Positions 10,100 to 58,233 of a stretch of 64,000 nucleotides of DNA are shown here, one piece after another. The stretch lies in assembly GCA_000002435.2 (NCBI GenBank), contig CM018789.1. One strand, given 5' to 3'. Under the pieces are notes generated by a model, which was given only the letters and a program-made list of their open reading frames with translations, was not told the DNA's origin and did no database searches. How positions within the stretch are numbered: position 1 is the first letter of the stretch; each line of letters begins with the position of its first letter. The position numbers and the translations under genes are program-made. The DNA comes from Giardia intestinalis (lineage: Eukaryota).

Positions 10100-12418
10100 A
10101 TGCAGGGTGGTCCTCATGCGCAGCCTGATGAACCCTTGTCGCTGAGCCCCACCGCAGACGATATAATTAACATGTATTGCCAGCAGATGAACCTCATGAA
10201 AGAGGAATACGGTAAAAGACTGTCAGAGCTCTATGCGACTGTTAGCAGCTCATTGGAATATGTACAGACTCTTCAAGACATTGTTCCGTATAACAATACA
10301 CAACTATCTAGTTCACGTGCGCCTTCTGGGCCTTCAACCGAGAAGTCTGATGGAGGCGTCACTCCCCAGGGTCACATAGGTTCCAGTATTAGTCAACATC
10401 TACTCAATGTCTTTAGGGAGTCACTCGAATCCGAAAAAGAGCTAAAGATTCAGGTGCTGATGGACGACCTGGCGCGCACAAAGGGCATTGTTAATGTTAT
10501 GGAAAGTAAGCTCTGTGAAAGCATGGGTACTTCCCAGAAGCTAACCAGAGAGCTGGATGAGCACAAGAAGCAGCTGCAGAATACCTCAACCTACACACAT
10601 AGTATCAAAAAGCGTGCCGCAAGCCTGGAGGCGGAGCTCAATTCACTACAACCACAGATCAACTCACTCACTCACCTCCAGGATAAGCTTATAGGTTTAG
10701 AAAAGCGCTCCAAGGCAAAGCAGGACGATTACAAGCGGCAACTTTCAACCCTTAAAGCCGACGTAAGCAAATTGGAATCGGAGAATGCCCTTTTAAAGCA
10801 CGATCAGGTCAATGTTTTTCAATTAAGGAACGAGTTAAATGATCTCCGGCTTAAGTACAATGTCCTGTATAAAGAGTATCAGGAGCTACAGAGCACTCAC
10901 TCCATTGCTCAGTATGATCTGCAGGCAAAGACAAAAACCCTTAGTGCAATGAAGTCAGCTAACACTCATCACATTTTAAAGGAGAAAGCAGCGTCGGATT
11001 CAATAAAATTAGCCGTGGATGCAGAGCTGAAGGACCAGCGCCGGTTGCTGTCAGAACTTGTTGAACAGGTTCGTCAGCAAGGCTCAGATCTCAAGAAATT
11101 GTCGAGCACCTCACCAGAGGAAATGGGAGTGGCTCTGGCAAACATTTTGTCAAAGCACCAGACCAACATTGACCGCCTATCAGTAGCAGCACTGGGCTCT
11201 GGTCAGGTATACTCCGGAGGAACCCCCTTTCATGGGGATCCAAACTATTTATATGATTATACTGGAACACCAGTGACTCAGCAGACCCACATTTCTATTG
11301 CACGACATACAGAGGCCATGAGGGCCCTTGAAGATGAGATTTGGCATAGAGCAGAGTCAAAGTACAAAACCTTGTTATTCAATGCAGAGTCGGACCTTCA
11401 AAGAAGACTCTCAGAAGCCAGGGACGAGTTCTATCAAAAGGAGATACAGCTCAAGAGACAAGTTCAAGAAGCTTTATCCAAAGGGACTGATAAGGTGCAG
11501 GATGAGCTAAGCAAGCTTCGCGAAGAATGTGCAAGTCTCAAGACGCTCTGCAGCCATAAGGACCTAGAAATGGACCGATTGACCCATATGCTAAACGCTG
11601 CACAGGAAGATATCGCCCGTTTCCAAACAGCCAACAGAGATTTACTTCAGTCTGCTGAAAGCTATCGCAATAGTCTGGAGTATTATGAAAACCTTAGTAA
11701 GCAAAGCATTTCTGCAAGAGGATTAATCAAGCTGTGCCATGATGAATTGAAGGAGATCAAGCGCCGCGTTCTAGATCTCAAAAAGACCCAGTTTTCTCCT
11801 TCAGACTGGCGAGAAGAGCAACGAGTTGGTGACGCTGAACTACTCTTCTCAGCCATAGCTGGAGATCTAAAGCTGACTTTCTCAGATGGCGGTTTGGCCC
11901 AGGTCCTTACGCCCATTGGAAACATGATAAAGACCAGTGTGGAGCACATAAAACAGCAGACAATCCGGATTAATGATGAGAAGTGGATGGCACAGATCCA
12001 CCAGATGGAGCGCGACTACGGGGATCAGATTGCATACATTATGAATGACAACGAAAAGCTGAAACAAACAATCATTGCGCTGCGCGAGAGAATGCAGGTC
12101 GAGATGGTTAAGCTTTTGGGAGTAGAGCTCACAGACATGCACGACAGATGCGCTACTCAATTGGATAATTTAAAATATGAAGCCGAAAGCATGAAGACCG
12201 CACTCGATGAATTTCTCAAGAATCGTCCTCATCAGCTTGCTGAGGCACGTTTGATGAGCTCCCCTATCGCACCTGGCCCTGCCTCCAAGGGAACTCCACT
12301 GACTTACAAGACACAGGCCGTCACACCGGGTCTTCTCATAGATGCGACACTCCCCACATTCGTGACTCCAGGAACTGTTCTGGAGCCAGCCACAGAGGGA
12401 AATGGCGGGACGCGGTAG
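10100..12418 (+). CDS. Coiled-coil protein (about 772 aa)
   Basis: The ORF track starts at a GTG (10082). The first ATG is at 10100, 20 nt downstream of aaattaaaataa. Extended heptad repeats. Confidence 0.65.
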   Translation: MQGGPHAQPDEPLSLSPTADDIINMYCQQMNLMKEEYGKRLSELYATVSSSLEYVQTLQDIVPYNNTQLSSSRAPSGPSTEKSDGGVTPQGHIGSSISQHLLNVFRESLESEKELKIQVLMDDLARTKGIVNVMESKLCESMGTSQKLTRELDEHKKQLQNTSTYTHSIKKRAASLEAELNSLQPQINSLTHLQDKLIGLEKRSKAKQDDYKRQLSTLKADVSKLESENALLKHDQVNVFQLRNELNDLRLKYNVLYKEYQELQSTHSIAQYDLQAKTKTLSAMKSANTHHILKEKAASDSIKLAVDAELKDQRRLLSELVEQVRQQGSDLKKLSSTSPEEMGVALANILSKHQTNIDRLSVAALGSGQVYSGGTPFHGDPNYLYDYTGTPVTQQTHISIARHTEAMRALEDEIWHRAESKYKTLLFNAESDLQRRLSEARDEFYQKEIQLKRQVQEALSKGTDKVQDELSKLREECASLKTLCSHKDLEMDRLTHMLNAAQEDIARFQTANRDLLQSAESYRNSLEYYENLSKQSISARGLIKLCHDELKEIKRRVLDLKKTQFSPSDWREEQRVGDAELLFSAIAGDLKLTFSDGGLAQVLTPIGNMIKTSVEHIKQQTIRINDEKWMAQIHQMERDYGDQIAYIMNDNEKLKQTIIALRERMQVEMVKLLGVELTDMHDRCATQLDNLKYEAESMKTALDEFLKNRPHQLAEARLMSSPIAPGPASKGTPLTYKTQAVTPGLLIDATLPTFVTPGTVLEPATEGNGGTR

Positions 12419-12460
12419 TTTACATGGTACACCAAAGCAATTCCAACACAGCAATTAAAG

Positions 12461-14974
12461 CTATACCTCTGTGGTATCCTTAGTCGACGAAGTCAGCCCC
12501 TCTCCTTCTACTTTTGAGGTAGAATGCCCGTTGCTATGTGCTTTCTTCATCCGTCTGCGGTTTGCGAACTCTCGCAAGCGCTCTATAACGCTTGGAACTC
12601 TCTGCCACGTACCTTCGGCTTTACATTTCTTGACATGCTGGCTGTATTTCACACACCGGAAGATAAAGTATCCTGTCAGCGAACCAATGAGCAGAGCTAG
12701 GATAATTGCCAAGCTAGTGTAAACTCCTGTCTCTAAAGCAGATACAGGCTGGTCCCATTTTTCGGGCTGTCTGACGCAGACCCCTGTTTCTGTAAGCATA
12801 TAGCCATCTATGCAGGAATAGAAGCTGCAAAGGTCTTCGTTATACCTGTCCTTTTGGGTATCACATGGATTAGCATAAATCCCCCCTCCCATGGAGGTGC
12901 AATACTTGCTGATTTTCATTTGAAATGGGTAGCACGTTGAGGACGCCTTTTTATAAGCCTCCACGGCCAACGTTAGATATGTGGTATGGTCCATATAACG
13001 TGACCCACCTGGTGGCCAATAATTAATATAATCATCCACCGGATTGTTGACGTACTCCAGCGGCGTCTTGACAGCATCGAAGGGCTGGCTCCAATTCCAT
13101 GAGAAGACCTGCTCGAATGCCCACCGATGTAGAGCTGTTGTGGGAAGCTTTTTGAGTCCAATGTGTGTTTCGTATTGGGGAGCGAAGGAGTCATCGAAGA
13201 TATATTGCGAGTCCATGACGGATCCTCCAGCAAAGCTCGCTACATCCATGTCCACAAAGCGATTCTCAGCATCCGTTTGGTTTCTGATCCTTCGGAGCGC
13301 CGGGTTGCCGCCCATTCCCATCCACACTCCCATGTGGGCCTCTCGCGCCCTCTTCGCAAAACACGCGCATGTCGATCCACAGGTGCCATCGGTAACAAAA
13401 ACGAGGCGCGAATTTCCAGACTCCTGTAGAAACTTTGGCGTCTTGATGTTCACAAGGCGTTCAAAGTCCTCCCGGAAGTCCACCTCATCATAGGCTAGGT
13501 CAAACGTGTAGATTCCGGAGAGGGCTTCCTCGTGCCCCGTCATATAAAGAAGATGCTCTGTCTCGCCTGTGTACCACGCGTTGTTCTTGTAACGCATCCA
13601 ATTACTAAGCCTGTACCTATCTTGCATTGAGAAATTGCCTCGAGAAGAGTAGAACTCCGCGTAGGGCGACTTGCGAACGGTATAGTTACCATACAGTGGA
13701 TTGATGTAGGGCGCAAGAACATGAAGAGTGCGGTATCCCAACGTCACATATCCTCCGCCGTTACGAGCAACATTAACTATCAGGAATGGATCAGCGATAT
13801 GCGTGTTATCAAGAATAGACATGGCAGCTTCGAAATCGTCTACATATTGCTTAGGGCTTTCAGGGGCAAAGGTCGGAATATTAAGGAGGTACCCAACGTG
13901 CTTGGTGTTTTTATAGAGGGAGTAGAGTGTGACATCCACTCCTGAGTGACTTACATCAATATAATACTCGTCTCCGTTATCAGTTAGTATCGGAGAAGCT
14001 TGAGTATGCTGAGTAGGACTTCTCGTACGTTCTTCCATGGTATCACTTAAAAATCTAGCAAGTGGAGTTCCCTGCTTCCCGGTTATCTCCAGAGAACCAG
14101 AGTCAGCGTCAGTGTGCGTATTCATAATGTATGCCTTAAGGTCAGCCACACCCCTGATTTCAGTAGTCACGTAGCCAAAGAAGGGAAGCTCGATGATGGA
14201 ATTGTCAGAGAGCTCAATGGAAAGAACCTCTGTATCCAGTGGACTGCCAGTTCTCCCCGGCCATCCGAACGACCGGAGACTCCTAACATAGAAGTCGGTG
14301 TTCAAGGCAGCATTAAATCTAGCATGTGGGTTTTTAGAGATATAAACCACATCATCTGCAAATCTCTGCATGGCCTCTGCCACAGGTATGCCATTAATAG
14401 ACAAAATGCGCTGGTCGATGAACTGGTCGATGTTGATGCCTTGTTCTCTAAGCTTTTTCCTGTACTCCCAAGTAACAAACTGGTACTCCGGAGGGAGCTC
14501 TGTTAGCGTATACTCCAGGACACGGTTGCGGTATATTGCCGTGACAGTGAGCGGCAAGACAATGCGAATAAAGGAGTATCCCTGTGGCTTGTCATACCGT
14601 GTATGCGGGTCCTTGAGTCTAAGGTAAATGGCTGACACTGCATCATGGAAGTCGAAGTCCGTTGTGTACTCCTCTATGTTATCACGAATGGATTGAAGCT
14701 CTCTTTTGACATCTGTGTGAGGGAGCTTGTACGCGTTTGTAGGGACGTCATATGGGGCAATGGGCTCCTTAGCCATCTCACCAAAGACGTACATTTCACT
14801 TAGTTTGAGAAGTGTGTCGATGGTGGGGTACCCCACGCCGTTCTTGTCCAATGGTATTGAATCGAAGCAGGCACGTAACTGACTGAGCTCAAGAACTTCA
14901 TTCGTGTGAGGGAAGTAGCACGGATCTGTCGTTAAGGCCACAACATACACGAGAAGAAGGCAGCCCAGTCCCAT
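12461..14974 (-). CDS. Type I membrane glycoprotein with signal peptide, large ectodomain, one C-terminal TM helix and a basic cytoplasmic tail. The ectodomain carries a tentative peptidase-S41-like signature
   Basis: N-terminus MGLGCLLLVYVVALTT looks like a signal peptide. A TM helix YTSLAIILALLIGSLTGYFIF lies near the C-terminus. The motifs VNVARNGGGY and LVFVTDGTCGSTCACFAKR resemble the S41 motifs DLRxNxGG and LVxxGSASASE, but Cys or Thr sit where the serines would be. The similarity is weak. Confidence 0.7.
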   Translation of the reverse strand: MGLGCLLLVYVVALTTDPCYFPHTNEVLELSQLRACFDSIPLDKNGVGYPTIDTLLKLSEMYVFGEMAKEPIAPYDVPTNAYKLPHTDVKRELQSIRDNIEEYTTDFDFHDAVSAIYLRLKDPHTRYDKPQGYSFIRIVLPLTVTAIYRNRVLEYTLTELPPEYQFVTWEYRKKLREQGINIDQFIDQRILSINGIPVAEAMQRFADDVVYISKNPHARFNAALNTDFYVRSLRSFGWPGRTGSPLDTEVLSIELSDNSIIELPFFGYVTTEIRGVADLKAYIMNTHTDADSGSLEITGKQGTPLARFLSDTMEERTRSPTQHTQASPILTDNGDEYYIDVSHSGVDVTLYSLYKNTKHVGYLLNIPTFAPESPKQYVDDFEAAMSILDNTHIADPFLIVNVARNGGGYVTLGYRTLHVLAPYINPLYGNYTVRKSPYAEFYSSRGNFSMQDRYRLSNWMRYKNNAWYTGETEHLLYMTGHEEALSGIYTFDLAYDEVDFREDFERLVNIKTPKFLQESGNSRLVFVTDGTCGSTCACFAKRAREAHMGVWMGMGGNPALRRIRNQTDAENRFVDMDVASFAGGSVMDSQYIFDDSFAPQYETHIGLKKLPTTALHRWAFEQVFSWNWSQPFDAVKTPLEYVNNPVDDYINYWPPGGSRYMDHTTYLTLAVEAYKKASSTCYPFQMKISKYCTSMGGGIYANPCDTQKDRYNEDLCSFYSCIDGYMLTETGVCVRQPEKWDQPVSALETGVYTSLAIILALLIGSLTGYFIFRCVKYSQHVKKCKAEGTWQRVPSVIERLREFANRRRMKKAHSNGHSTSKVEGEGLTSSTKDTTEV

Positions 14975-15058
14975 GTGTGACAGACTTTTTTATTTAACTG
15001 GCTGAGCCTGGCGCTGGATGTCACCAAATTCCGGGGACACAGTGCTGAGACTAGTACA

Positions 15059-15065
15059 GTTTACT
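15059..15065 (-). terminator. Polyadenylation signal AGTAAAC overlapping the SRP54 TAA stop
   Basis: The minus strand reads tca AAG TAA ACt. AGTAAAC is the canonical Giardia polyA signal. Confidence 0.55.
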
Positions 15066-16653
15066 TTGACATCTTTGCCTTCTGAATCTGCTGGAGTTTT
15101 TTAAGTTGCCCAGCAGACATGTTGCCCATCCCTGTGGCCATCTGCTGAATCTGCTGCATACTCAAGTTGCCTGGCATCTTCATGCCCATGCTTTTTGCGA
15201 TATCTGCCATCTCAGACATATTCTGGAGAGATCCCAAGCCGTTCATCATCTGCTGCATCATTTGTGGGTTCATCTTCATGCTCGAGAAGAGCTCCTGCAG
15301 CGCAGCTGGAGACTTCATCTTTCGTCCCATTTTCCCAAATATCTCACTGAACTCTGTAGCCTTGTCAAAGAACTCTAAGACTTCTTCTATGGTGTGTCCA
15401 GACCCTATTGCGATACGTCTGACGCGCGACCGGAACTTGTCTTCTCCCTCTTTCTTAAGGAGCTCTGTGTTAGAGTCTAGCTCCTTTGCTGCCATAGAGT
15501 CCATGATGGTGTTAAAGATCTGCAAGTGCTTTACCTCTGAATCCATGTCTATGTCCCCAGAGGCGGCCATCTGGGAGAAGCCGGGCACCATAGACGCAAT
15601 CTTCTGCAGGGGCCCCATTTTGTTAAGATTCTTAAGCTGCTCCTTGAAATCACGGAAGGAAAAATGGTTATGGAGCATACGGACAACCGTTTGTATGTGA
15701 GCTTTATGGTCAATGTTTCCTCCCTGCATGGCTTCATGTAACCCCACGATATCACCGTATCCTAACATAACTGACACAAAACGTGACGGATCAAAGAACT
15801 CGAGGTCTTCAATCTTCTCACCTGTGCCGAGAAAGACTATCGGAGCCTTAGTAGCACTGACAGCAGCCAGTGCTCCTCCCCCGCGACTGTGGCCATCAAG
15901 CTTTGTTAAGATTACTGATCCTATTTCAACTGCATTGCTAAAGGCGTCTGCTTGCTCATATGCGGCCTGGCCAATGGATGAGTCTAGGACAAAGACATGG
16001 TCATGGGGCTGCACAGCACTGTCAATTAGTTTCATTTCAGTAAATAACGCCTCCTCTTGCCTGTGACGCCCAGAGGTGTCCAAGATTATGAGCTCAAAGT
16101 TCAAACTTACAAAGTGCTTGACTCCGTCTTGAGCGATCTGAACAGGGTCCTTTTCGGAATAACTGCCGTAAAAGGGAAGCTTTACCGCTGTGCAGTTCTG
16201 CTTCAGCTGGTCAAATGCTCCAGTACGGAAGGTATCGCAGCAAACAAGCCCGACGCGCCACCCCTTCCGCTTGTAATATGCCCCAAACTTGACACACGTC
16301 GTGGTTTTGCCAGCTCCTTGCAACCCTACAAACATAATCACATTAGCCCGATTCCGGACAGGCCTAAAGGGCGGCCGCTCAGGGGAAAGCATAGAAACAA
16401 GCTCCTGGACAACGATGCGCTGAACAACCTGGTGTGTGTTGGCACGTCCTTCCATGATCGCTGGGTCACTCAAGATCTTCGTGGTCATCGATTTTCGCAT
16501 AGGCTCGAGTGTACGGGCAGGTACATCTGCTGCCTCCAGCACTCCGATGAATTCGTCTACCAGCGCATTTACCGCCTCATTTGTCGTCAGCCTTGTCTTA
16601 GCAAACTTGGTTATGACGTTTAGCACATTAGACCCCAATTCGTTGAGGACCAT
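15061..16653 (-). CDS. SRP54: Signal recognition particle 54 kDa protein (SRP54), with N, G (GTPase) and Met-rich M domains
   Basis: GLQGAGKTTT (G1), DTSGRH (G3), TKLDG (G4) and a C-terminal methionine-rich domain (MMQQMMNGLGSLQNMSEMADIAKSMGMKMPG). ATG at 16653. AGTAAAC polyA signal overlapping the stop. Confidence 0.95.
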   Translation of the reverse strand: MVLNELGSNVLNVITKFAKTRLTTNEAVNALVDEFIGVLEAADVPARTLEPMRKSMTTKILSDPAIMEGRANTHQVVQRIVVQELVSMLSPERPPFRPVRNRANVIMFVGLQGAGKTTTCVKFGAYYKRKGWRVGLVCCDTFRTGAFDQLKQNCTAVKLPFYGSYSEKDPVQIAQDGVKHFVSLNFELIILDTSGRHRQEEALFTEMKLIDSAVQPHDHVFVLDSSIGQAAYEQADAFSNAVEIGSVILTKLDGHSRGGGALAAVSATKAPIVFLGTGEKIEDLEFFDPSRFVSVMLGYGDIVGLHEAMQGGNIDHKAHIQTVVRMLHNHFSFRDFKEQLKNLNKMGPLQKIASMVPGFSQMAASGDIDMDSEVKHLQIFNTIMDSMAAKELDSNTELLKKEGEDKFRSRVRRIAIGSGHTIEEVLEFFDKATEFSEIFGKMGRKMKSPAALQELFSSMKMNPQMMQQMMNGLGSLQNMSEMADIAKSMGMKMPGNLSMQQIQQMATGMGNMSAGQLKKLQQIQKAKMSK

Positions 16654-16856
16654 CGGACACTACAGTAAAAGATTTTAAGGACCTGATATCGATTTAAGGC
16701 AATTTACTCATTGTCAGTTCAGCGGCGCCATAAGACACCACAAGGGACACCTAGCGTGATATGTTATGTTATGCTAGGCTATGCGGACGACAGAAGCCAT
16801 GATCTGCGCTCTGACTCGCCAAAAGCGTACACTTGAAATTGTATCGTTGCCAAAAA

Positions 16857-18068
16857 ATGCGTATGCTCATAGCTCGGCTTTCAGCGTTCAAAAGGCAATT
16901 TCATGATGTAGTGGGTGTTGGGATGCTTCACTTCTTAGCCAAGTATGCTGGTGCAACAAGTGCGAGTTCGATAGTGCGGCAGGAATATGAAGACATGCAA
17001 CTAGGAAGGGAGCCCCTTCGCATGAGTGATGTGGAGGACGCTATGGTTCTCTTTCGAGCAGTACAGGCATTCAACTCCAACTACATTCGAAGGGCTATGT
17101 ATGGAGGGCTGCCTTTCATATTACGTATAGCATGTGCTGTTTCAGCACTGGCACCGGATTACAACCAACGCTTCAGTCGGAATGTGACCCTGTACGAACA
17201 TCGGCTCCTTCGTCGCCTGTGTTCTGCTGTGGGGCTAGGCCCCGATAGTATCTTGTTGCATAACGTAAAGTGCTACCATGAAGAACTTTTGGCATGGGCT
17301 CTCTTGCATGATCAACCCAACAATCGCTTGCTGGTTATTATTCAGGGAATTTCTCAGCTGCACAACGCGTCTCTTCTTCTGTATATGAATCCGACACAAC
17401 TGCCATCAGGCTCCACGGTGCACACTGGCGTATACCGCGCAGCAAGCCCACTGTATGAGATTCTCTCTCCCTATATACATATGAACTTCGAGCATAACTT
17501 TCTCCGTGACTACTCCATTGTGTTGTGCGGTCACGGATTTGGCGGATCTGTAGCAGCCCTTGTGGGTGCTATGCTTCTGCGGCATCCCACTGGCACCTTT
17601 ACACCTAGCAATACTAAGGTTGTTACCTTTGGCCCCTTCCCCTTCGCTGGTCCAGACTTTGCATACAGGGAACATATACATGTAACGTCATTTATCTATC
17701 GGTTCGATGCCATTGCACGTCTCAGCTTACACGCTGCTGGAGTACTAAAGACTCGAAAAGCCACCAGAGAAGAGCAATCAACATCTGCCCTATCCCAAAA
17801 GGTTTTGCTTAACTCTTTGAGCAAAGACTGCGCGTACTTCATCCCTGGGACAATATACCTATTGCACCCAGGAGTACGACCAGTTACTTGCACACCCGAA
17901 GCTTCCGACGTCAGCATTGACGTCTTGGTGAACGAAGAAAAGCTGAAGGCATGTACGTGTTACCGAGCAATCGATTCTCACGACCTAGCAGAGGTTATAC
18001 TCTCCGAGCAGGCGATTAACGACCACTTCATGTATGAAGATGCCCTCAAATCCTTGTGCATTGACTGA
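16857..18068 (+). CDS. Class 3 lipase-like alpha/beta hydrolase (about 403 aa)
   Basis: The ORF track starts at a TTG (16833). The first ATG is in caaaaaATG at 16857. The nucleophile-elbow motif VLCGHGFGGSVAALVGAML matches the lipase_3 GHSLGG consensus, with Gly replacing the serine. Confidence 0.6.
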   Translation: MRMLIARLSAFKRQFHDVVGVGMLHFLAKYAGATSASSIVRQEYEDMQLGREPLRMSDVEDAMVLFRAVQAFNSNYIRRAMYGGLPFILRIACAVSALAPDYNQRFSRNVTLYEHRLLRRLCSAVGLGPDSILLHNVKCYHEELLAWALLHDQPNNRLLVIIQGISQLHNASLLLYMNPTQLPSGSTVHTGVYRAASPLYEILSPYIHMNFEHNFLRDYSIVLCGHGFGGSVAALVGAMLLRHPTGTFTPSNTKVVTFGPFPFAGPDFAYREHIHVTSFIYRFDAIARLSLHAAGVLKTRKATREEQSTSALSQKVLLNSLSKDCAYFIPGTIYLLHPGVRPVTCTPEASDVSIDVLVNEEKLKACTCYRAIDSHDLAEVILSEQAINDHFMYEDALKSLCID

Positions 18069-18096
18069 GAAATACTTTCTATCGTCACCAGACTGA

Positions 18097-18717
18097 TTAA
18101 TCTTTAGATGTTTGCAAGACCGGGGTCGACGACCGTGACTTGTTTGTTGGAGTATACGCTCTCAAAGCTCTTGAGAAGTCGTCTAGTTGTGTTTGACGGT
18201 AAGGAGAAGACGCCATCTCTTGTGCCCACCTTTTACGATTTCGTGCCGCTGCGGCCCTTTCTGCACGTTCATAGAGCTCCCGTTCCGCTAACATAGCTTC
18301 CTTCACCCGTTCTTTTTCTGCATCTCTGCGTACTTTGTATCTATGGTATTCGTCTATCGTTTTCTTGATGTGTTCCTCAGAGCTACCACGTTTGGAGCTA
18401 GACAAAGTAAACGGTTTAACCTTGGTGGGGTTGTTCAAGGTGGATTTGGCTCGGTAAGTGACGAGCATCCCGGAATGCTCAACTGCCGGTCTCGGTGTTG
18501 AGACGCTGTTAGCAGGAATTAATAAGGACTGCATGGGGGTATTGAGGTTAGACGATCTGACGGTTTTAGACCCATCAACTTCAGGTGTGACCGGGGCACC
18601 TGGAATTCTGAAGTGATGTGAGCCTCTGGGAGTCGACACCTTGGGCAGCTGATAAAAAAGCCCCCCTACTTGTGTATAGCTTGTCGCCGGCGTGGCGGTG
18701 GATCGAGAGCGATTCAT
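18097..18717 (-). CDS. Hypothetical basic protein with C-terminal coiled coil (206 aa)
   Basis: ATG preceded by ctagccaaaaaATG. S/T/P-rich N-terminus. KERVKEAMLAERELYERAERAAAARNRKR segment. Confidence 0.5.
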   Translation of the reverse strand: MNRSRSTATPATSYTQVGGLFYQLPKVSTPRGSHHFRIPGAPVTPEVDGSKTVRSSNLNTPMQSLLIPANSVSTPRPAVEHSGMLVTYRAKSTLNNPTKVKPFTLSSSKRGSSEEHIKKTIDEYHRYKVRRDAEKERVKEAMLAERELYERAERAAAARNRKRWAQEMASSPYRQTQLDDFSRALRAYTPTNKSRSSTPVLQTSKD

Positions 18718-19045
18718 TTTTTGGCTAGAGAAATTGAGTAAGAAAAGCCATCAAAAGATAAGAGTTTGCTTTAGGCTTTTATCCGCGGATATCAAAGTAC
18801 TGTGCAGCTTCGGGATCCGGCCTGACAACTTATTTTATGAAACTCACTTAAAGACTGCTTCCTAATCTCAGAAGTAAGTAGATGTAACCAGGCTGCGCGT
18901 GCTCATGCTGGTACTCCTCAAGGCACAGGTTTTCTAGTAAGAAGTGGCAGCCTAAGTCTCGGTGCAAGCTTAAAGCCTTCAGTGTAAATGTGACTGGAAG
19001 GCAGACGGCGGACTGCCCTGGTCATCACCTCACAGTACGCACCCA

Positions 19046-20290
19046 TTATGCCCCTGGCGGTAGCAGCTCATCACTGGACTCTGTCAGCAGACAGTTCTCC
19101 TCTGCTGCTACTCCCTCACCACTAAGGCCACAAAGACGCTGAGCTTCTGCCTCACACAGGCCTCGGTAGCGCAAGGCCTTCTGGCCAAGGCTGGAGGAGC
19201 AGAGCTGCTCCAGGACCCTTTGTCCGTTCAAGCTCTCTGTTTTATAGCTACTGTACAAGGCAATCCACGGGGCATTCTGCAATATGCTTTGCACAGTCTC
19301 GCCCAATTGAGGGACAGGGATGTCCATTCCAGAAAGTGAGGCATGATGTACGAGCTGGCGCTGCTTAAGGCTATTGTCAGTAATCCCCGGGTTCTTAATG
19401 ATCTCTAGAATGATACGCATGGCTAGTACACGGCCCAGCAGAGAGGGTCCGCCGATGCGGATGTGCGGGATATCGTCGTCCCCTAAGCTCACCCCACCGT
19501 CGGCTCTCTTTGTAATGACAACAGTACCCTTACGTCCGAGTAAAGCCCCGCCACCACGCAGCTGCAGTTCTGTTCCTGTCAGTGTCTGAAGTTCTCTCTG
19601 GGTGCTAGCCTGCGGTCCAAGTAAAAGCCCACTGTAGTTAACTGTATTTGTCCCCCCTACAGATTGCGGAAAATAGATGCAGATGGGCGGCAACTGGGTA
19701 GACCTTAAGTTTAATGATGGAATGAAGAATGGGTTTCCACGTTGAAAAGAGCTCTCTGTAGCGACATACTGTTGCAAAGATAGGTAGTGTAAAGATAAAA
19801 GACGGAGGCGATCCGGGGAGAGAGCGGTTGAAGAAGACAAGTATCCGGAAAGGCCGTCGACTGAAGAGGTAAGAATTGAAGTAAAGCCAGCTGCTATGTT
19901 AGGGTGTGCCGGATTAGCTAGGAATGCTCCATAAGGGGCATCTTCCTGCAAAATTGCTCTGTGTCTCATTCGTAAAAAAGCCTCAGTAATACGTAGATGG
20001 CTTTGAACAGCAGTAAGCTGAGCCTCCGTAAGGTAGTTTGGAATTCCCTGTGGCATGTGCTCAGAATAGACTGACTTGTTATTTGCGGGGGCAATGACCG
20101 GCGTTGGCTGTCCGAACGGACGCTTTGGACAAGAAACATACTTTTTGTAACTGAAGCGAGCTGCTGAGGGCTTGTGTGAAGAGGCTGCGAACTCTTTGGG
20201 TTTGGCTACCACTAGATGAGCAGATAAGTTGTAAGAGTCCATTACTAATCCTAAATCAGTTTTTTGATGACATACATGTTGTCTCAACAT
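19046..20290 (-). CDS. Hypothetical protein (414 aa; alternative start at the ATG at 20242)
   Basis: Long ORF with coding codon bias. The second in-frame ATG (MDSYNL, 20242) is preceded by the A/T-rich tcatcaaaaaactgatttagg. Confidence 0.5.
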   Translation of the reverse strand: MLRQHVCHQKTDLGLVMDSYNLSAHLVVAKPKEFAASSHKPSAARFSYKKYVSCPKRPFGQPTPVIAPANNKSVYSEHMPQGIPNYLTEAQLTAVQSHLRITEAFLRMRHRAILQEDAPYGAFLANPAHPNIAAGFTSILTSSVDGLSGYLSSSTALSPDRLRLLSLHYLSLQQYVATESSFQRGNPFFIPSLNLRSTQLPPICIYFPQSVGGTNTVNYSGLLLGPQASTQRELQTLTGTELQLRGGGALLGRKGTVVITKRADGGVSLGDDDIPHIRIGGPSLLGRVLAMRIILEIIKNPGITDNSLKQRQLVHHASLSGMDIPVPQLGETVQSILQNAPWIALYSSYKTESLNGQRVLEQLCSSSLGQKALRYRGLCEAEAQRLCGLSGEGVAAEENCLLTESSDELLPPGA

Positions 20291-20621
20291 AGTGGTGACG
20301 CGCGCAGTAGACCTTAGTGGTTACATGACTCAGCAGTCTTCTGTGAACAAGAGCTTAGCACTGCTGGGTTCACTTTATCTTGGCAGACGGCTTCATGACG
20401 AGCCGCAGCATCGACTCCATGGCTTGTTGCAAGAACACCGCTGGCCAAGAGCACTGTACAAGAGAATTGGCACCACGAGCACATTAATATAGAAGTGGCT
20501 GATGGACAAGACTAGGGAGACTCTCTGGCCACTGACACTGTTCGTTGTTATTGCAATCCACATTACAATATTATTAAACCCCTGTTCGTGTTGAGTACGC
20601 TCGCGGCGAACCGCCAGCTAG

Positions 20622-21230
20622 ATCGATAAGTGCGAAATAGTCGGTGACGCAGAGATCTGCACCCAGTGCAACGGAGATGGGTCTCAATCTGCCCCGACGG
20701 ACGGAGTGTGCTCAGCAGACAATAACGAGTGTACCCGGAAGCAAGATGGGAAGTGCACACAGTGCGCTAATAGGTCCTTCATGTACAAGGGCGGATGCTA
20801 CAAGGATAGCCAGGCACCTGGCAACACGATGTGTGAAGCAGCAAATGCTGGAGTATGCACACAGGCTAAGGAAGGGTACTTCCTGCTACCAGACGCAGAC
20901 GACTCTCACCAGTCGGTCATACCGTGCGGAGATGACACAGTAGTAACAGTTAGCGGCGATAAGAAGTACAAGGGCGTGCTGCACTGTACTTAGTGTAATA
21001 CACCTGACGCAGCACAGGATACTACTACTCCCAAGGCTGCCACTTGCACGACCTGTGAGGATGGTTTCTTTGTAGATAGTAGTAATAGATGCACTGCTTG
21101 TCCGGAGAACTGCCTGACCTGCACTGGTAAAATAGTCAAGGAAGAAGCCGACGGGGCAACTGCTTACATTGCTACTAATGACTGTATTCAACTTTCTAGT
21201 GAAGGCCCAATCTTTTTAATCCCCGTCTCT
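20622..21230 (+). pseudogene. VSP (variant-specific surface protein) pseudogene fragment: 5'-truncated, one in-frame TAG, 3'-truncated
   Basis: The reading frame from 20622 gives ...CTQCANRSFMYKGGCYKDSQAPGNTMCEAANAGVCTQAKEGYFLLPDADDSHQSVIPCGDDTVVTVSGDKKYKGVLHCT*CNTPDAAQDTTTPKAATCTTCEDGFFVDSSNRCTACPENCLTCTG. This is collinear with the N-terminal third of the intact VSP at 31678-33528 (CGSCKDGYFMYKSGCYNSGGSPGNEMCTSAPEGKCSTPAAGYFIIPTTDADASHQSVVSCSD...KIYKGVEGCAECT). There is no ATG or signal peptide, no TM helix and no CRGKA tail. The frame is broken by a TAG at 20991. Confidence 0.7.
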
Positions 21231-21914
21231 GAGGGGTTTGTCGTCTCCTGTTTCTATCTGCAGCCGCGCCGGGGACAGAGCGGCTCTCGCGGGGCCAGGC
21301 ACCTGGTGTCCTGGGCGGCGCCGGGTCTGAGTGGGTATGCGCCTTCAGCACTGTGGGCGTCCCCCGTCCCTCTCCTGTACAAGGGATCGGTGATGCGTAC
21401 CCCCTCGGTCTGCGTGCGGTTGTCAGTGCCCGTGCCTCGTGGTACCCCGGCTCTTTCAGCCCCAGCTGTCGTGGCGCCCTGCTCCGGCCATATCCCCACG
21501 AGGCCGCGTATTCTTCCATGGGACGGTCCTGGTTCCGTAGAGGCACGCCTGGGCCCACGATTCTCCCTGCGGAGGCCCCGTTGTCTGTGCTACTGGGGTC
21601 TGGGCCATCCGTCTGTACCGCTGCTTCAGGAGTCACATGAGTAAACTGCCTTTCACGTGGCTTTTTATAGAAGTAGACACTGATTGTAATCAACAGGGTC
21701 TAAAGATCTCTCGCCAATTGTACATGTCAGATCCTGTGGATTTTGGAATCCTTGGGTAGCATCCGTGCCCGGCTGATACGCGCGCCTCGGGCTCAGCAAG
21801 CCTGCCGCCCTCCTCCTCTTGCCCCCTGCGAGGACGCCGCCACTGGCTAGGCGCGTGCACAGCTTGTCCATCCGGCCCTTGAGAAGAGCCACATCACACG
21901 AGGAAGGGCGTCGT

Positions 21915-22721
21915 TTACTCGAGGAGAGAGGCGATTGCGTCGTGGCCATGCCTCCTTGCGATGTCGAGGGCGGTGGTGCCGGGCGGGAAGCCGAACCACT
22001 CACGGGTGGTCTGCATGCCCTTCTCCTTGTCCATCAGGAGCCTCGCACACTCCAGGCGGCCACTCTGCGCTGCATGCATGAGCGCTGTCCATCCATTGTT
22101 AGTCTTCATGCCGTCTTCTTTGTCTATTAGAAGCCTCACGCAGTCCGAGCAACCGTTGTCGGCTGCGTGCATGAGGGCAGTCCACCCACTGTTGGCCCTC
22201 ATTCCGCATTCCTTGTCCAGTAGAGCCTCCGCACACTCACAGCGCCCATACTGTGCTGCATACATTAGGGCGGTCTTCCCATCATCCGTTTTCATGCCAC
22301 CCTCCCTCTCCAGGAGGAGCTGCACGAACTCCAGTTTGCCGCGCTGTGCTGCGTACATAAGGGCAGTGGTGCCGTTGTTCCTCCTTTTGCTGCCTTCCCT
22401 CTCCAGCAGGAACTTCGCGCATTCCGGGTGGCCCCCGTACGCCGCCCGCATGAGCGCGGTCTCTCCAAGCTTATTCTGTGTGCTACCTTTCATCTTCAGC
22501 AGAACCTTCACGGCTCTCAGGTTTCCATACTCTGCTGCTGACATGATGTCGGTCTCGACGAAGCCGTATTTCAGCAACAAAAAAGACGAGAGACTCAGCC
22601 CGCTCCTCCCTTGTTGGTGGTAAAACTCTGCGGCTTCATCGATGCTCCTATCAGAAGCAGACCCCTCGGTGTCCTGAGAGCGACGACTCATTTCCGAAGC
22701 CCCAAGCACGTCGCTCGACAT
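21915..22721 (-). CDS. Ankyrin-repeat protein of the Protein 21.1 family (about 268 aa)
   Basis: About six repeats of 33 aa of the Giardia type (TALMxAAxxGxxExVxLLxxxEGG). The ORF track starts at a TTG (22871) inside GC-rich DNA. The first ATG (22721) is preceded by the initiator aagttaaaaATG. Confidence 0.8.
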   Translation of the reverse strand: MSSDVLGASEMSRRSQDTEGSASDRSIDEAAEFYHQQGRSGLSLSSFLLLKYGFVETDIMSAAEYGNLRAVKVLLKMKGSTQNKLGETALMRAAYGGHPECAKFLLEREGSKRRNNGTTALMYAAQRGKLEFVQLLLEREGGMKTDDGKTALMYAAQYGRCECAEALLDKECGMRANSGWTALMHAADNGCSDCVRLLIDKEDGMKTNNGWTALMHAAQSGRLECARLLMDKEKGMQTTREWFGFPPGTTALDIARRHGHDAIASLLE

Positions 22722-22879
22722 TTTTAACTTCGTCTGCTTGCAGGAAGACACTGCCACGGAAACACACACTTTGCTCTCTACTTCATTGAGAACGGTTTGC
22801 CAACTGCTGTCCGAGCATCTCCGTGGGAGCCGCCGCGCTGGGTGGGTCTCCGCTCGCCGTCCGGGGTCCAAATCCAGAG

Positions 22880-23940
22880 TCCGAGGTCGGATGCCCTCGA
22901 TCCCGGCGGAAGAAGAACTCCTATGTCTGCCTCCCCTGGAAGCTGCCGCTCCTCGCGGTGCCCCCTAGGACTTTCCTTCCTTTGGCTAGCTTGGGTCAGC
23001 TCCGTCTGATATCTAGTGAGCACCTGCTATCTCGGATCTTGCGTCAGTCGCGACGATCTGGCCTCCACAGAATCCAAGGCCCTGGTGCTCCATGACGAAG
23101 ATCCCACGCCACGACCCCGGGTGTCCACCCCGTTCCTCGGGGTGCCTCTTCGTCTCCTCGTGGAGGGCACCATCTGTTCCATTCTCAAGGGTGCGCTCCC
23201 CATGCGCCTCTATCTTGAGGTTGTGGTACGCGTTTGTGGATGCCGGCGGAGCACTCCCATGCGTTGTGTCGGGGGAGAGGCCCACCTCTCTGCTCATGGA
23301 TCGCAGAGGTGGTCTGTCACCCAGCACGAGATCATGTCGACGCCCACCCTGTGCAGTGCGTCTGGCTCGGCTGACAGTGTGAGCTGCGTCCATCTGACAG
23401 CACACTTGGAGATGATGCTTCGGTCTGTCGAGGCAGTCAGTCCAGGGCCACCCCTCTGAAGGGTGTCATATGAAGTATCAAGAGCGATCAGGACAGGTTC
23501 ACCGAAGTCGTCTCGCTTGGCGCTCATCTACTCGAGGGTGTCAGGCACTGCCAGCTGCTGCGGCAGACCCTAGGTAGGTGACCCAGACCACCACTCTCGG
23601 TGCGGGCAGGATCAGTCCGCCTCTGCCAGCCAAGCACCCCAACTCCCATCTCTTGTCGAGGGATTCACATGGGTCACGTGTGGATCCATCTCGACCAGCG
23701 TGACAAGTGATTAGTGCCATCACTGGCTTCAGGCTCTCCGTTGCCTTGGGCGTTCCTTGAGACCAGCCAGGAAGGAGGCCTCCTGCTTCTCAGTGTTCCT
23801 ATACTTGTCAGTGTTGACCGTCGAGCCATGTCGCTTCATCAGGCCTGCCGCCTCTGTGGCTACCCCCGTTGCGTCACTGTCGTCACTGTAAAAGATGAGT
23901 GTGTCGTCAGTGTAGGCAATGAGCTTGAAGCGGCTCACTA
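22880..23940 (-). mobile_element. Possible degenerate, 5'-truncated non-LTR retroelement remnant containing a reverse-transcriptase motif-C fragment
   Basis: The short minus-strand ORF at 23729-23938 encodes LIAYTDDTLIFYSDDSD, a tandem Y-x-D-D pattern that matches the RT active-site motif followed by hydrophobic residues. The surrounding 1 kb is GC-rich (unlike nearby genes) and lacks any long ORF, consistent with frameshifted decay. The extent is uncertain. Confidence 0.3.
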
Positions 23941-24207
23941 GACAGCGGCTGATTCAGAGAAGATTAAATAAAGAGAAGGTAAGATTCTTGGAAAGTTAAG
24001 ACGAGAAGTAAGATATTGGCTCTCAGCGTATAGAAACACAAAGTTCCTTCTTTCTTGCCGGAGCTGGATCGCATCCAAATGCTAAATCCTGAATTCCAAA
24101 TTCTGGACTTTTAAACAAACGAAGATGCTATCTGGAATGACAATTCAACTGGGCAGCAACTGGAAAGCCCGTCATAATGAAGCAGAGTAATTCAGTAGTG
24201 CAATTTA

Positions 24208-25716
24208 TTAAGCAAAATACCGATTCTTCTCGATGTCAGCAACAAAGAGCACTCTGTCCTCGCTGCACAGATAAACAGTGTCGATGGTAGGGTAGTCGAT
24301 GAAGTTCCCGTTCATGAGGGCCACCCCTGTCTCGGCCAGAATCGGGTTAACAAGGGGGAGGTACTTATCTAGAAGAAGACGCTTCAGTAGGGGAACAGGG
24401 TCGTCCATCCCTTCGCTGTGCTTCTTGGTGGCGATATCGTACACATCAAGGAACTCTACATATGCACGAACTTGGTCATTGGCAAACCCGTAGGTAAACT
24501 TCTTAAGCTTGACCGCAGAAGAGAAGAGCACGTCGCCCTCAAGGTTGGCCAGAGTTACAGAAGTTTGGTCTGAACTCTTGCTGGCTGTCACAGAGAGGGC
24601 CCCCGTGAGGTTGACCGGTAGTGTAGCCGCCCCGATCCACGGTATGTGGGGTGCGGCATCCTTGGAGGGACTGATCGATAGAGTCAAGGTGACCCCGAGT
24701 CCAAGGTCGCTAACACTGCTTAGTAGTCCGGCCTTCACAAGGGCCTCTGCAAGACCGGGTATGTTCTGCCCCCTGATGGTGCTGTACGGGACAGTGAGAC
24801 TATCTGCCTTGAACTTGTCATACGCCACATGCCAGGCATACAGGTAGGAGTTAACTGATTCCCTGTCTACATAGAACTCATAGTCTCGGTCGGTGTAGAC
24901 CGTCTTCGGAGGGGGAGAGGTGATCTTGTTTGGATAGAGAGCTCTAACCGACCAATCTGGGACAGTGATGATCATTGAAAAGCCACCCTGGTCTGCCACT
25001 ATCTTGTTATCGACGACATTGATGCCGTTGATGTAGCGCTGGTCAGTCAGATAGTCGTCGATCTGGACAACTAAGGGCAGGTTGAGCATTGACTGCTTTA
25101 TTGAATTGAAGATTGTGTTAAAGAGGAGCTGCAGCACAGTGTCCTTTATTAGGGTCTCCAACGTGGGGGCCATGCCTTGGATGGCAGTTGCAAGGACAGA
25201 GCCCCCTGTGTCGAGTCCGATGGCATCGATGTCAAGCCCAGACGAGTACACGACGTTCGATATCTCGGAGAGCCCGAAGTGGTACGGGCAGGTGGGGTCG
25301 TCTCCGAGCCTCAGAGAGATGTCTGCCCCGAAGTCCTTGAGGGTGAATATGCAGTCGACGGTCCCGGTGATCCCGGTGATGACTGCCTTGAGTCGCATCG
25401 AGATCTGCATGAGTCCGTCCCGGGCCTCCATCTTGACAAAGTTGTTATCTTGCAAATAAACCTTCATGGTTGAAACACGCACTGCACGGGGTCTGATATT
25501 GGAGAGAGTAATCTGCAAAGTCCCGACAGTTATGGGTATCTCTGGAAACGCTGGAAGACCAGAAATAATGTCAGGAATGATAGAGTAGCCCTTCTGGCAG
25601 AACTTCTCCAGCCCACGTCTGGTGAAGCGCATTCCCATTCCATGTTCAGGTTCGTTAGTAAAAGGTGTACCCAGGGCACATCCCAAAGTAATAGAAAATA
25701 GTAGTAGTATTAGCAT
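24208..25716 (-). CDS. Secreted protein with N-terminal signal peptide, tentatively BPI/LBP/CETP-like lipid-binding (502 aa)
   Basis: N-terminus MLILLLFSITLGCALG looks like a signal peptide. The region after it (RRGLEKFCQKGYSIIPDIISG...VKMEARDGLMQISMRLKAVITGITG...LRLGDDPTCPY) resembles the start of the BPI N-terminal barrel in spacing and in its single Cys pair. The call is tentative. Confidence 0.6.
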   Translation of the reverse strand: MLILLLFSITLGCALGTPFTNEPEHGMGMRFTRRGLEKFCQKGYSIIPDIISGLPAFPEIPITVGTLQITLSNIRPRAVRVSTMKVYLQDNNFVKMEARDGLMQISMRLKAVITGITGTVDCIFTLKDFGADISLRLGDDPTCPYHFGLSEISNVVYSSGLDIDAIGLDTGGSVLATAIQGMAPTLETLIKDTVLQLLFNTIFNSIKQSMLNLPLVVQIDDYLTDQRYINGINVVDNKIVADQGGFSMIITVPDWSVRALYPNKITSPPPKTVYTDRDYEFYVDRESVNSYLYAWHVAYDKFKADSLTVPYSTIRGQNIPGLAEALVKAGLLSSVSDLGLGVTLTLSISPSKDAAPHIPWIGAATLPVNLTGALSVTASKSSDQTSVTLANLEGDVLFSSAVKLKKFTYGFANDQVRAYVEFLDVYDIATKKHSEGMDDPVPLLKRLLLDKYLPLVNPILAETGVALMNGNFIDYPTIDTVYLCSEDRVLFVADIEKNRYFA

Positions 25717-29029: not shown

Positions 29030-29650
29030 GCTTTGCTGATGGGACCCTCGTCTGGGTGTGGTCCAGAGGTCTCACGAGTGACCCTCGCTCAATTCCTGGC
29101 CAGTCCGGAGACAAAGGTCGACTTTGGATAATATAACGAGAGAGTCCTCTCCAATGATATGTCCAGAGCCTGGTGCGCTCCTCGGTCGTTCCACAAGCGT
29201 GTGCTCAGACCGAATGCGTACATCGGTCCTTTAGGGGTTCAGCTTACTTACCCATCTGCGTCGTCCACCAGTGGCGCCTCTCCTTGGTCTTCCTTCACGG
29301 TGGGTGAAGCTCTGGTCGCCGTCTTTTTTAGATGCTCCCGTCTGACTCGGTGATTGCTGTCGGGGCTCTCCACTGGCCGCCCCTCGGTGTCCATCCGGCT
29401 GTGGTTCTGGGCAGTGGTCCCACAGTCGCGGTTACCTGGGTCCCAGTGGGCCAGCTGGTGGGGAGGCTGGGGTTGCTGGGGCGGTGAGGCCGGAGGGGAC
29501 TGGTGGGACCGGGGGCGGTGTTCATATGTGCCCCTGGGTCTGGTGGGCCATTGGGGTGGTGGGGTGATCGCAGCTGTGGTGACTGGGGGCTGTCCATCTG
29601 TGACTCACCCCTCTGTGTGCTCGTGGTCTGTGAGTGCCTCCACCCAGACA
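29030..29650. repeat. Left arm of a large inverted repeat. Core 29163-29404 is 100% identical to the reverse complement of 31272-31513
   Basis: Compared directly base by base. The outer and inner flanks are alignable but diverged, with indels. Confidence 0.85.
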
Positions 29651-31009: not shown

Positions 31010-31650
31010 GGAGGCGCTCAGTCAGGGGGACACGACACGATCGTCGGTGTCTGTGTCTCGGGAGTGCAACGAAGGCTGGGGATCAGACACAACCACCTTG
31101 GCAAACAGAGCGGGGATCACCCACCACCCCAATGGCCCATCAGACCCAGGGGCACATACAGACATCACTCCCAGTCCCCTCCAGCCCTCACCGCCCCATA
31201 CCCCGCCTCACCCATCATCCGAACCCGCTGGGACCCAAGCGACCGCGACTGTAGAGCACTGACTCGAGCCACAGCCGGATGGACACCGAGGGGCGGCCAG
31301 TGGAGAGCCCCGACAGCAATCACCGAGTCAGACGGGAGCATCTAAAAAAGACGGCGACCAGAGCTTCACCCACCGTGAAGGAAGACCAAGGAGAGGCGCC
31401 ACTGGTGGACGACGCAGATGGGTAAGTAAGCTGAACCCCTAAAGGACCGATGTACGCATTCGGTCTGAGCACACGCTTGTGGAACGACCGAGGAGCGCAC
31501 CAGGCTCTGGATGTATCACTGGAGAGGATTCTCTCGTTATATTATTCACAACCAGCCATCGTCTCTGGACTGGTCAGGAAGGAGCGATGATTACCCACAC
31601 GATCTCTGGACCGCGCTCAGATAGCCCCAGCAGCACATCTACATAGGCTA
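31010..31650. repeat. Right arm of the inverted repeat. Ends about 15 nt from the VSP polyA signal
   Basis: Reverse complement of the left arm. The short ORFs 29328-29654 (-) and 31064-31345 (+) end with the identical peptide ...GGQWRAPTAITESDGSI, which confirms the mirror symmetry. Confidence 0.85.
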
Positions 31651-57800: not shown

Positions 57801-58138
57801 CCTACATTTAGCAGATCCTTTGTGCCTTCGTCTAGAGTAATGTCAAAGACCACGTTCCTAAGTGTTCCATGCACCTCAGTGAAGAGACCCACATTTGTTC
57901 CCAGATTCTGGAACCCTTTAACGGATATCTTGTGTGACTGGCCTATTATGATCCCGTAGAAAGGCGGTAAAGGGGTTAATGGTCCCTGTATATCGATATC
58001 ATTCAACAGCACAAAGAACCCTCGAGGACACTCGCGAATCAGTTCAATATCTGCAGCAGTCCTTAGCTCCAAGCGAAGATTACAGTTCGTAGCTGTACAA
58101 AGGGCGCCGGCAAACAGCAACGGCAGAAAGAGCCCCAT
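54893..58138 (-). CDS. High-cysteine membrane protein (HCMP): signal peptide, large CXXC-rich ectodomain, one TM helix, short acidic tail (about 1081 aa)
   Basis: The ORF track starts at a GTG (58237). The first ATG is at 58138 and gives the signal peptide MGLFLPLLFAGALCTA. More than 40 CxxC or CxC motifs cluster in the C-terminal half. TM helix IAIGVSAGLVALIVSMTIIAIVCV with a KKRRSAQKSEEDD... tail and no CRGKA. That pattern is HCMP rather than VSP. Confidence 0.85.
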   Translation of the reverse strand: MGLFLPLLFAGALCTATNCNLRLELRTAADIELIRECPRGFFVLLNDIDIQGPLTPLPPFYGIIIGQSHKISVKGFQNLGTNVGLFTEVHGTLRNVVFDITLDEGTKDLLNVGLLAGILNSTSLYKVTINGSLLLTKPMNSDSEALAVGGLAGRSYITPSNVAVNATIRYSGLRKAILGGVIGNIAKPGLNVDASIISGLSFNGSIECRNSICILGGVAGECGRSLLNCSANFSRVYVRSEWLSPCVYGGLVGIHYASVGSSTVTANIVELTNLGTYSYIGGFLGNLQSDCIHCVVIDKCVANYYSFSVGTDIMYIGGFAANLAGVLVRHSVVNITTGLFSGIVGGFVSTASVTTVEQCAVVMENLTQSYIESSGSGGFVAIANSDTSIADSYVRINYYTFNTPLYLFGGFVGTSVDSIIANCFAWFKIVTMQVSPTSSITIGGFCGQLYSRTNNSLIDNSFVFVRSFLYNFRTSHNLTFGSFLGAVNGPSGAVTGNVHYLKSLWWFMNVSIACSTWNDTAAIRYGGFAAAITDNVLISDCAGTVNFTGSCSGFKADYGLASFVYFGHMNGLSAARVLLNVTFTYTEPGYKPYSIKAFGPGLNASHCTKCENILVAANPGIDETDLFSIVPEFLTLSTTYLARGWWLNENSGWNFFNTALPILTTLPYAVVITDKVIDLIAVSCSAPLCWDYNTTWVVGRNTGMIDLQFFINECSVGLCASCLEASDKRCIACSSGALDNSYSVCTPCKSGCMACPTLSSICEVCSDASYVTTTSGVCIKFRACSIEQCTHCYEGANKKLLCLRCTNGYWLNKAFNRCDACPSNCFECSSSTQCLRCKNIRSPPLSGYCDYSTLCIDNTNCQFCQASDPFYCVSCNKWNMRPNSDGVCVVSNQTYCTLSNCVVCEAGNSNRCSVCGLNTYLSFFEGTCQQCPSECKTCTPVLCTSCIDTQKRPVMGTCMYSTKCTTPYCLYCSTNNPDQCLLCYKGYSLMVPGNICTKNEVRLNTTPIAIGVSAGLVALIVSMTIIAIVCVKKRRSAQKSEEDDTSLVTQEDTDTSLSFINVLNNASHTFTFASTKQSSKE

Positions 58139-58233
58139 TTTGATTGCATAAAAGATGATTGCATAAAGGATTAAGAAAAGATATAAATTCGGCTTAAATA
58201 GAGGGGGGATACGGTTGGTGTCGGAAACCGTGT

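Follow-up and report, generated by a model that had tools for sequence, protein, structure and literature searches.

A 3′-truncated and 5′-decayed VSP pseudogene of Giardia intestinalis that probably still exchanges sequence with its paralogues

Background

The VSG pseudogenes of Trypanosoma brucei, msp2 of Anaplasma and the vls cassettes of Borrelia serve as silent donors in antigenic variation. In Giardia, the switching of VSPs is considered an epigenetic or post-transcriptional process that proceeds without DNA rearrangement, and truncated vsp pseudogenes as well as recombination among vsp genes were described earlier (Adam et al. 2010, PMC2996952). High cysteine proteins (HCPs) that lack a signal peptide are likewise considered to be pseudogenes (Rodriguez-Walker et al. 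2022, bioRxiv 10.1101/2022.03.07.483299).

The sequence considered here lies in a window of 64,000 nt of chromosome 1 of Giardia intestinalis WB (NC_051856.1:1344001-1408000), and resembles the pVSPs and signal-peptide-less HCPs of Giardia in being Cys-rich and VSP-like, with no working start or signal peptide, no TM domain or CRGKA tail, and an internal stop. Its best similarity is to VSPs, and it has lost both signal peptide and open frame; in the scheme of Rodriguez-Walker et al. (2022), loss of either or both makes such a sequence a pVSP or Cys-rich pseudogene. The class of feature, and effectively the locus too, is already known, and the relic adds no new kind of element or mechanism. We consider, with a probability of about 0.88, that it is a dead VSP gene, truncated at its 3′ end and decayed at its 5′ end, that extends from 20566 to ~21218 of the window, is common to sub-assemblages AI and AII, and has gone on taking part in gene conversion.

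Genomic context and VSP homology

The relic (NC_051856.1 ~1364565-1365217) sits on the plus strand of a chromosome of 1,485,438 bp, which is also home to the intact VSP and the neighbours named here, between two WB C6 ORFs on the minus strand, GL50803_0010270 (19046-20290) and GL50803_00113130 (24208-25716). Its Cys-rich body, delimited by translation, tblastn and Pfam, occupies 20622-21218 (plus strand, ~199 codons); translated over 20622-21230 it reads IDKCEIVGDAEICTQCNGDG…KKYKGVLHCT*CNTPD…CLTCTGKIVKEEADG…EGPIFLIPVS. As in functional VSPs, a Pfam VSP (PF03302) match goes together with a Cys-rich CXXC/GGCY ectodomain: the 202 codons of 20622-21227 hold 20 Cys, 6 CXXC motifs and one GGCY motif (YKGGCY), and PF03302 scores 40.9 bits on 20622-20990 and 18.8 bits on 20994-21230 (gathering threshold 31.4). 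The reading frame of a functional VSP is uninterrupted, and that of the relic is broken in WB by TAG at 20991-3, TGA at 20592 and TAG at 20619. The first of these, an in-frame TAG that the original prediction had placed at 20991-20993, is indeed seen in the plus-strand translation of 20622-21230, and it is specific to WB; isolate DH, sequence L001 and the paralogues L002 and L003 have CAG or CGG there, i.e., a C at 20991, on which both alignable paralogues agree.

The body had been described as collinear with the N-terminal third of the intact VSP at 31678-33528 (minus strand), and tblastn bears this out, aligning 20640-21107 with residues 43-201 of that protein in one collinear match (167 aa aligned, 37% identity, E=1.7e-21); another match, less strong, falls on an internal repeat of the same VSP. 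Of the sequence blocks said to be shared, FMYKxGCY, PGNxMC and DADxSHQSV are common to both, but the 'GYF' portion of the first is absent from the relic, which reads RSFMYKGGCY. Overall, the VSP homology is far beyond chance. The only other tblastn match to the fragment in the window (55652-55747) is weak and lies inside an ORF of 1114 aa (54893-58237, minus strand), which, with its Cys-rich, CXXC-dense C-terminal half, TM segment and non-CRGKA tail, resembles HCMP/CRMP.

The intact VSP, GL50803_0087628 (exactly XP_001709063.1 / KAE8301851.1), has a signal peptide, a TM domain and a CRGKA tail. Its closeness to the relic (10.4-10.5 kb) looks incidental, because the two share just 37% aa identity, lie on opposite strands and differ in signal-peptide class (MFEKILF… in GL50803_0087628), and it is not the source of the relic. 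An inverted repeat starts ~100 nt 3′ of this gene; its arms (29093-29419 and 31254-31580) match over 327 nt with 94% complementarity, and a second part (29505-29563 and 31120-31178) over 59 nt with 86%. No VSP lies beside the left arm, and the repeat may once have flanked a second VSP, arranged tail-to-tail with this one and since lost.

The 3′ breakpoint and the GC-rich block

The last Cys-rich module, TGKIVKEEADGATAYIATNDCIQLSSEGPIFL (21135-21218, plus strand), has a homologue, TGKIVKEEADGTTTCIAEGACTQNGNDGPNFL, in several Cys-rich pseudogenes of WB; the peptide that matches this homologue beyond CLTCTG is KIVKEEADGATAYIATNDCIQLSSEGPIFL. Cys-rich homology ends in a breakpoint at 21213-21230, at a T5 run (A5 on the minus strand), where a GC-rich block starts, GC content rising from ~0.48-0.54 to 0.64-0.68 at about 21200-21600. 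The abrupt end that had been put at about 21230, with GC-rich non-coding DNA beyond it, is right, since Cys-rich homology runs to ~21218 and GC stands at 0.64-0.68 from ~21200 onwards. The block itself (21230-21640, 64-68% GC) is a flank of the locus and not part of the VSP. It is 92-100% identical per 100 nt between WB and AII, with one 1-nt indel, shows no codon periodicity in codon-position GC, and gave no Pfam match in six frames and no Rfam match, and its minus-strand ORF has 0 relatives among 1.84 billion representative proteins.

The C-terminal TM domain and CRGKA tail of functional VSPs are absent from the relic, and tblastn with the intact VSP and a TM+CRGKA probe found no remnant of them in any frame of 21000-24200, ~3 kb downstream. 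Judged from the alignments at both ends, only the 3′ two-thirds of the gene, these elements included, are missing.

The downstream DNA has several features of its own. The T5 run (21213-21217) lies exactly at the junction between relic and GC-rich block. It may mark where a retroelement on the minus strand ended in poly(A), or may be merely Phe-Leu codons of the VSP module; insertion of a retroelement is a possible cause of the 3′ truncation. Reverse-transcriptase (RT) remnants occur on the minus strand in GC-rich non-coding DNA 2.5 kb from the junction (~23768-23944 and 23294-23527). One of their peptides, 'LIAYTDDTLIF', reaches 18.8 bits against Pfam RVT_1 (E=0.0014, below the gathering score), and an RT-motif-A-like 'LIALDTSYDTL' stands in the wrong order for a single RT, which suggests scrambled debris of a non-LTR retrotransposon. 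The 3 kb from 21225 to 24207 have roughly 58-65% GC, are unusual for the compact Giardia genome, and probably contain only one annotated gene; one ankyrin-repeat ORF (21915-22722/22871, minus strand) with strong Pfam Ank matches is a putative gene model. WB 22871-23496 is not alignable to DH. An AGTAAAC at 21640-46 (plus strand), overlapping the TGA that ends the ~350-codon ORF of DH (21638-21646), fits the Giardia poly(A)-signal consensus AGTRAAY; it may be a chance occurrence, with ~1 such site to be expected per 4 kb, or may mark a genuine 3′ end on the plus strand. A match to Rfam pRNA RF01518 at 22783-22867 (plus strand; 26.6 bits vs a gathering score of 34, E=0.022) is very likely chance in GC-rich DNA.

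A decayed 5′ end

The original prediction had the fragment lacking a start codon and signal peptide, and called it truncated. Intact versions of both are indeed absent, but degenerate remnants of both can be made out at 20566-20621, so 'truncated' holds for the lost 3′ end and not for the 5′ end, which appears decayed rather than cut. Functional VSPs have their ATG in an Inr-like context, PyAatgTT (Adam et al. 2010, PMC2996952), followed by a signal peptide of 14-17 aa. Read from the sequence, the relic has CAATATT at 20566-20572 (plus strand), with ATA in place of the start ATG at 20568-20570; this CAataTT aligns to the ATG of VSP GL50803_0050375, and the ATA is identical in DH and L001. The signal-peptide region that follows (20568-20621, plus strand) opens with ATA TTA TTA ('MLL'), aligned with the ATG TTA TTA of GL50803_0050375, has suffered a net 4-nt deletion, and continues in another frame with TTC GTG TTG AGT ACG CTC GCG GCG (20585-20608), i.e., FVLSTLAA, which corresponds to the core of MLLxxFYFVLSALAA, the signal peptide most often seen in VSPs. 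In WB the region is closed in the frame of the body by TGA at 20592-4 and TAG at 20619-21, and the first in-frame ATG of the body is the FMYK Met at 20781.

It might be argued that recombination cut the relic cleanly at both ends and that the DNA before 20622 has nothing to do with it, as strong nucleotide similarity to 'KCEMVG'-class VSPs starts only at 20625-20627 and two in-frame stops stand just upstream. Several observations make this unlikely. CAATATT falls exactly at the aligned VSP ATG, and 'MLL' and FVLSTLAA follow it in the right order and spacing. Local alignment of the 55 nt upstream of the strong homology with the first 59 nt of GL50803_0050375 gives a score of 34 (P=0.001 from dinucleotide shuffles, as the maximum over four VSP 5′ ends), reached by 0.4% of random pieces of the window (an empirical P of 0.004), and the peptide pattern F[VI][LVI]S[AST]L[ATV][AG] occurs once in the six-frame translation of the 64 kb and in 0/20 shuffles. 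In DH the remnant aligns with a weaker score (P≈0.05), and there it is in frame with the body (VLSKLVADHPPADKCEII…). We consider, then, that the 5′ end of the dead gene, start context and signal peptide included, is still recognisable, and was probably mutated and frameshifted rather than removed.

A hydrophobic ORF at 20503-20594 (plus strand; MDKTRETLWPLTLFVVIAIHITILL / MDKTRETLWPLTLFVVIAIHITILLNPCSC) was also considered as a signal peptide but set aside for the aligned CAATATT and FVLSTLAA, being unlike VSP signal peptides and out of frame in DH. It shares the frame of the relic in WB, overlaps the decayed VSP start and is conserved in DH; as it is conserved there but out of frame, it is probably fortuitous.

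The orthologue in sub-assemblage AII

The best database match of the fragment (P0001, 84% aa identity over the whole fragment) comes from an AII-like metagenome contig that is collinear with 10603-21688 of the window (11 kb, 97.2% nt identity). Its cluster mate ESU38982.1, 'VSP, partial' of isolate DH (assemblage AII), lies on a contig collinear with the window from 10588 to beyond 31000. The DH copy occupies the same locus between the same neighbours, and shares with the WB relic the ATA for ATG, the deletion in the signal peptide and the 3′ junction with the GC-rich block. It differs in having CAG in place of TAG, a signal-peptide remnant in frame with the body, and other paralogue-derived patches. 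Identity between WB and DH is 87% at the nucleotide level over the VSP part vs 97% over the flanks.

Loss of the start and truncation of the 3′ end predate the AI/AII split, because they are common to WB and DH, and the TAG at 20991 and a 1-nt frameshift at ~20620 are lesions of the WB lineage, because AII has CAG and a remnant in frame. The DH frame is open for ~350 codons, ~290 of them past the position of the WB TAG and on into the GC block, without a start codon; that it is a transcribed chimeric gene is a weaker reading of this open frame. The contigs that carry the neighbouring gene in Giardia lineages farther off (87%, 77% and 72% aa identity in that gene) end 74-612 nt upstream of it, and no VSP similarity was seen in that stretch.

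Evidence for gene conversion with VSP paralogues

The closest intact relatives of the relic by sequence comparison are two WB VSPs of the same chromosome, GL50803_0013727 and GL50803_0050370 (VSP AS12). Over 20671-20885 (plus strand) the relic matches them at 208/215 positions (96.7%), and its positional orthologue in DH at only 197/215 (91.6%). The derived variants 'ECTRKQDGKC' and 'CTQAKEGYFL' are confined, among the sequences compared, to the pair and the relic, and a haplotype, ACCCGGAAG, carried in the tract of the relic is shared with GL50803_0013727. Outside this tract they part: the two VSPs have an MFYAFLL signal peptide, differ in their N-terminal 45 residues, lose all similarity to the relic after ~20886 and are complete, TM domain and CRGKA tail included. 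Within it, at 20723-20741, WB matches GL50803_0013727, and each site of the DH relic is as in the AII paralogue L003 and in at least one further WB VSP, paralogue B.

Directly downstream lies a candidate gene-conversion patch (20886-20960, plus strand), where WB and DH differ in 31 of 81 columns (62% identity, 50/81), including a 6-nt indel. In its first part (20886-~20925), the WB version with its 6-nt deletion matches VSP GL50803_00101380 as far as the two were compared (~20925), and the DH version (20887-20912) matches L003 and another WB VSP (paralogue B); at 20925-20960, WB resembles paralogue L002 and DH resembles L003. Synonymous divergence between WB and DH (dS, Nei-Gojobori) is 0.36 in the relic and 0.47 in its 5′ half vs 0.079 in the adjacent gene, 4.5-6x the neighbouring value (Fisher P=2e-7 for synonymous differences, relic vs adjacent gene), and omega in the relic is 0.23. 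The ankyrin gene was left out of the omega comparison, its value being an alignment artefact. Among the 17 informative sites of the 215-nt tract, a sign test gave 12 vs 5 (P=0.14), which is not significant, and the case for conversion is therefore built on the haplotype blocks and the excess of dS.

Pseudogenes do evolve faster, and the adjacent intergenic stretch (20293-20592) is just 90-96% identical between WB and DH, so that the raised divergence could be put down to neutral decay of an unconstrained pseudogene, without any gene conversion. This is improbable, as dS of 0.36-0.47 lies far above the 0.079 that serves as a neutral proxy for the locus, and also above the divergence of 4-10% in the intergenic DNA alongside, and the differences are clustered (62% identity over 20886-20960, with a 6-nt indel). 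Moreover, both haplotypes are found intact in other VSP genes, and a WB paralogue is closer to the WB relic than is the DH orthologue. High dS coupled with low omega fits import from selected paralogues, and neither constraint in situ nor neutral decay.

The occurrence of the WB and DH haplotype blocks, intact, in other VSP genes argues that the relic takes part in gene conversion, and points to ectopic conversion later than the separation of AI and AII; independent mutation is the less likely origin of these blocks. The short-read contigs of 35 sequencing runs without exception break off at ~20706-20770, before the TAG and just inside the stretch of the relic that is shared exactly with GL50803_0013727, which is independent evidence that the tract is multi-copy. 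The earlier proposal that the fragment records past recombination or decay in a VSP locus proved apt on both counts, given the lesions and the paralogue-matching blocks, and the suggestion that such pseudogenes fuel diversification of the repertoire gains partial direct support from the haplotype blocks intact in other VSPs. That the relic was not just a passive acceptor but a reservoir from which expressed VSPs drew tracts of sequence we think doubtful; a candidate for such a tract may be the 'ECTRKQDGKC…CTQAKEGYFL' haplotype, which the relic has in common with the GL50803_0013727/0050370 pair alone. If true, such donation would be the Giardia counterpart of mosaic antigen formation from pseudogenes.

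Annotation of the locus

The WB reference does not label the locus a pseudogene, and annotates inside it an ORF of 70 aa as 'High cysteine protein' (20781-20993, plus strand), which runs from the FMYK Met to the WB TAG. The 70-aa sequence is identical under XP_001709067.1 and KAE8301847.1, and an error of sequencing at the TAG, raised at the outset as a possible objection, is unlikely for this reason. Secreted Cys-rich proteins are expected to combine a signal peptide with two or more CXC/CXXC/CXXXC motifs and to lack a TM domain (bioRxiv 10.1101/2022.03.07.483299). The two flanks of the ORF bear the names GL50803_intergenic632 and GL50803_intergenic633 in that preprint, which describes them as 'similar to Cys-rich genes'. 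A supplementary table of the same preprint gives NC_051856.1:1364993-1365914, the sequence that begins at window 20994. In the available part of its tables, the 5′ flank, the ORF and the 3′ flank do not appear together as one pseudogene, and the ORF is absent from what is available of Table S7, probably because it has no CXXC-type motif.

The annotated ORF could be a real small gene, expressed and functional, seeing that it is present in both WB protein records, has an ATG and evolves with a WB-DH omega of 0.23. We regard this as very unlikely. Its 5 Cys form no CXC, CXXC or CXXXC motif, it has no signal peptide and does not belong with the High cysteine or secreted Cys-rich proteins, and signal-peptide-less HCPs are regarded as pseudogenes in the preprint just cited. 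Its Met is a conserved internal residue of VSPs, that of FMYK, and its stop is a C->T change found only in WB, the DH frame running on for ~290 codons into GC-rich DNA without codon periodicity. The low omega, lastly, comes with a dS 4.5-6x that of the neighbour, as import from selected paralogues would give. The 'High cysteine protein' is most likely an annotation artefact, and together with the 'intergenic' stretches on either side it makes up a single VSP pseudogene, of which the DH gene 'VSP, partial' is the same relic. It is chiefly through this correction of the annotation that the locus is of value.

An assembly artefact or chimeric mis-join in a repetitive VSP region, which the breaking of short-read assemblies inside the relic might suggest, is hardly credible, as the same structure, collinear across both junctions, is present in the chromosome-scale WB assembly, the independent DH assembly and the metagenome contig.

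History of the locus

From the homology, lesions, synteny, excess dS and block-wise paralogue matches, all observed directly, we infer the following order of events and a lack of function. A complete VSP would once have stood at this locus on the plus strand, head-to-head with GL50803_0010270. Three lesions would have struck it before the split of AI (WB) and AII (DH): loss of the start (CAatgTT->CAataTT), a net 4-nt deletion inside the signal peptide, and loss of everything 3′ of about codon 220, leaving the junction with GC-rich non-coding DNA. Later, in WB, a 1-nt frameshift between signal peptide and body and the C->T nonsense change (TAG 20991) would have followed. The relic would make no functional protein, the 70-aa 'High cysteine protein' being an artefact of ORF annotation. 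As DNA, it would have been anything but inert, exchanging patches with intact paralogues until the WB and DH copies came to be the different mosaics that they now appear to be.

Some points count against a dead gene. An omega of 0.23, taken by itself, might be read as a sign of purifying selection, the reference annotates a 70-aa ORF, and the DH frame is open for ~350 codons; the sign test (P=0.14) and the DH signal-peptide remnant (P≈0.05) also fall on this side.

Comparison with other antigen gene families

The relic bears on the diversification of the VSP repertoire, and on the reasons for which assemblies from short reads are broken at sites like this one. It offers a clean and datable case, with positional orthologues in AI and AII that carry different paralogue-derived patches, and these differences imply that even dead VSP copies remain in the gene-conversion network of the family, a tidy illustration of concerted evolution involving a dead family member. 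Like the VSG, msp2 and vls donors, it appears to be an incomplete copy of an antigen gene that exchanges segments with intact members of its family. Unlike them, it would do so on an evolutionary timescale, and with no expression site involved.
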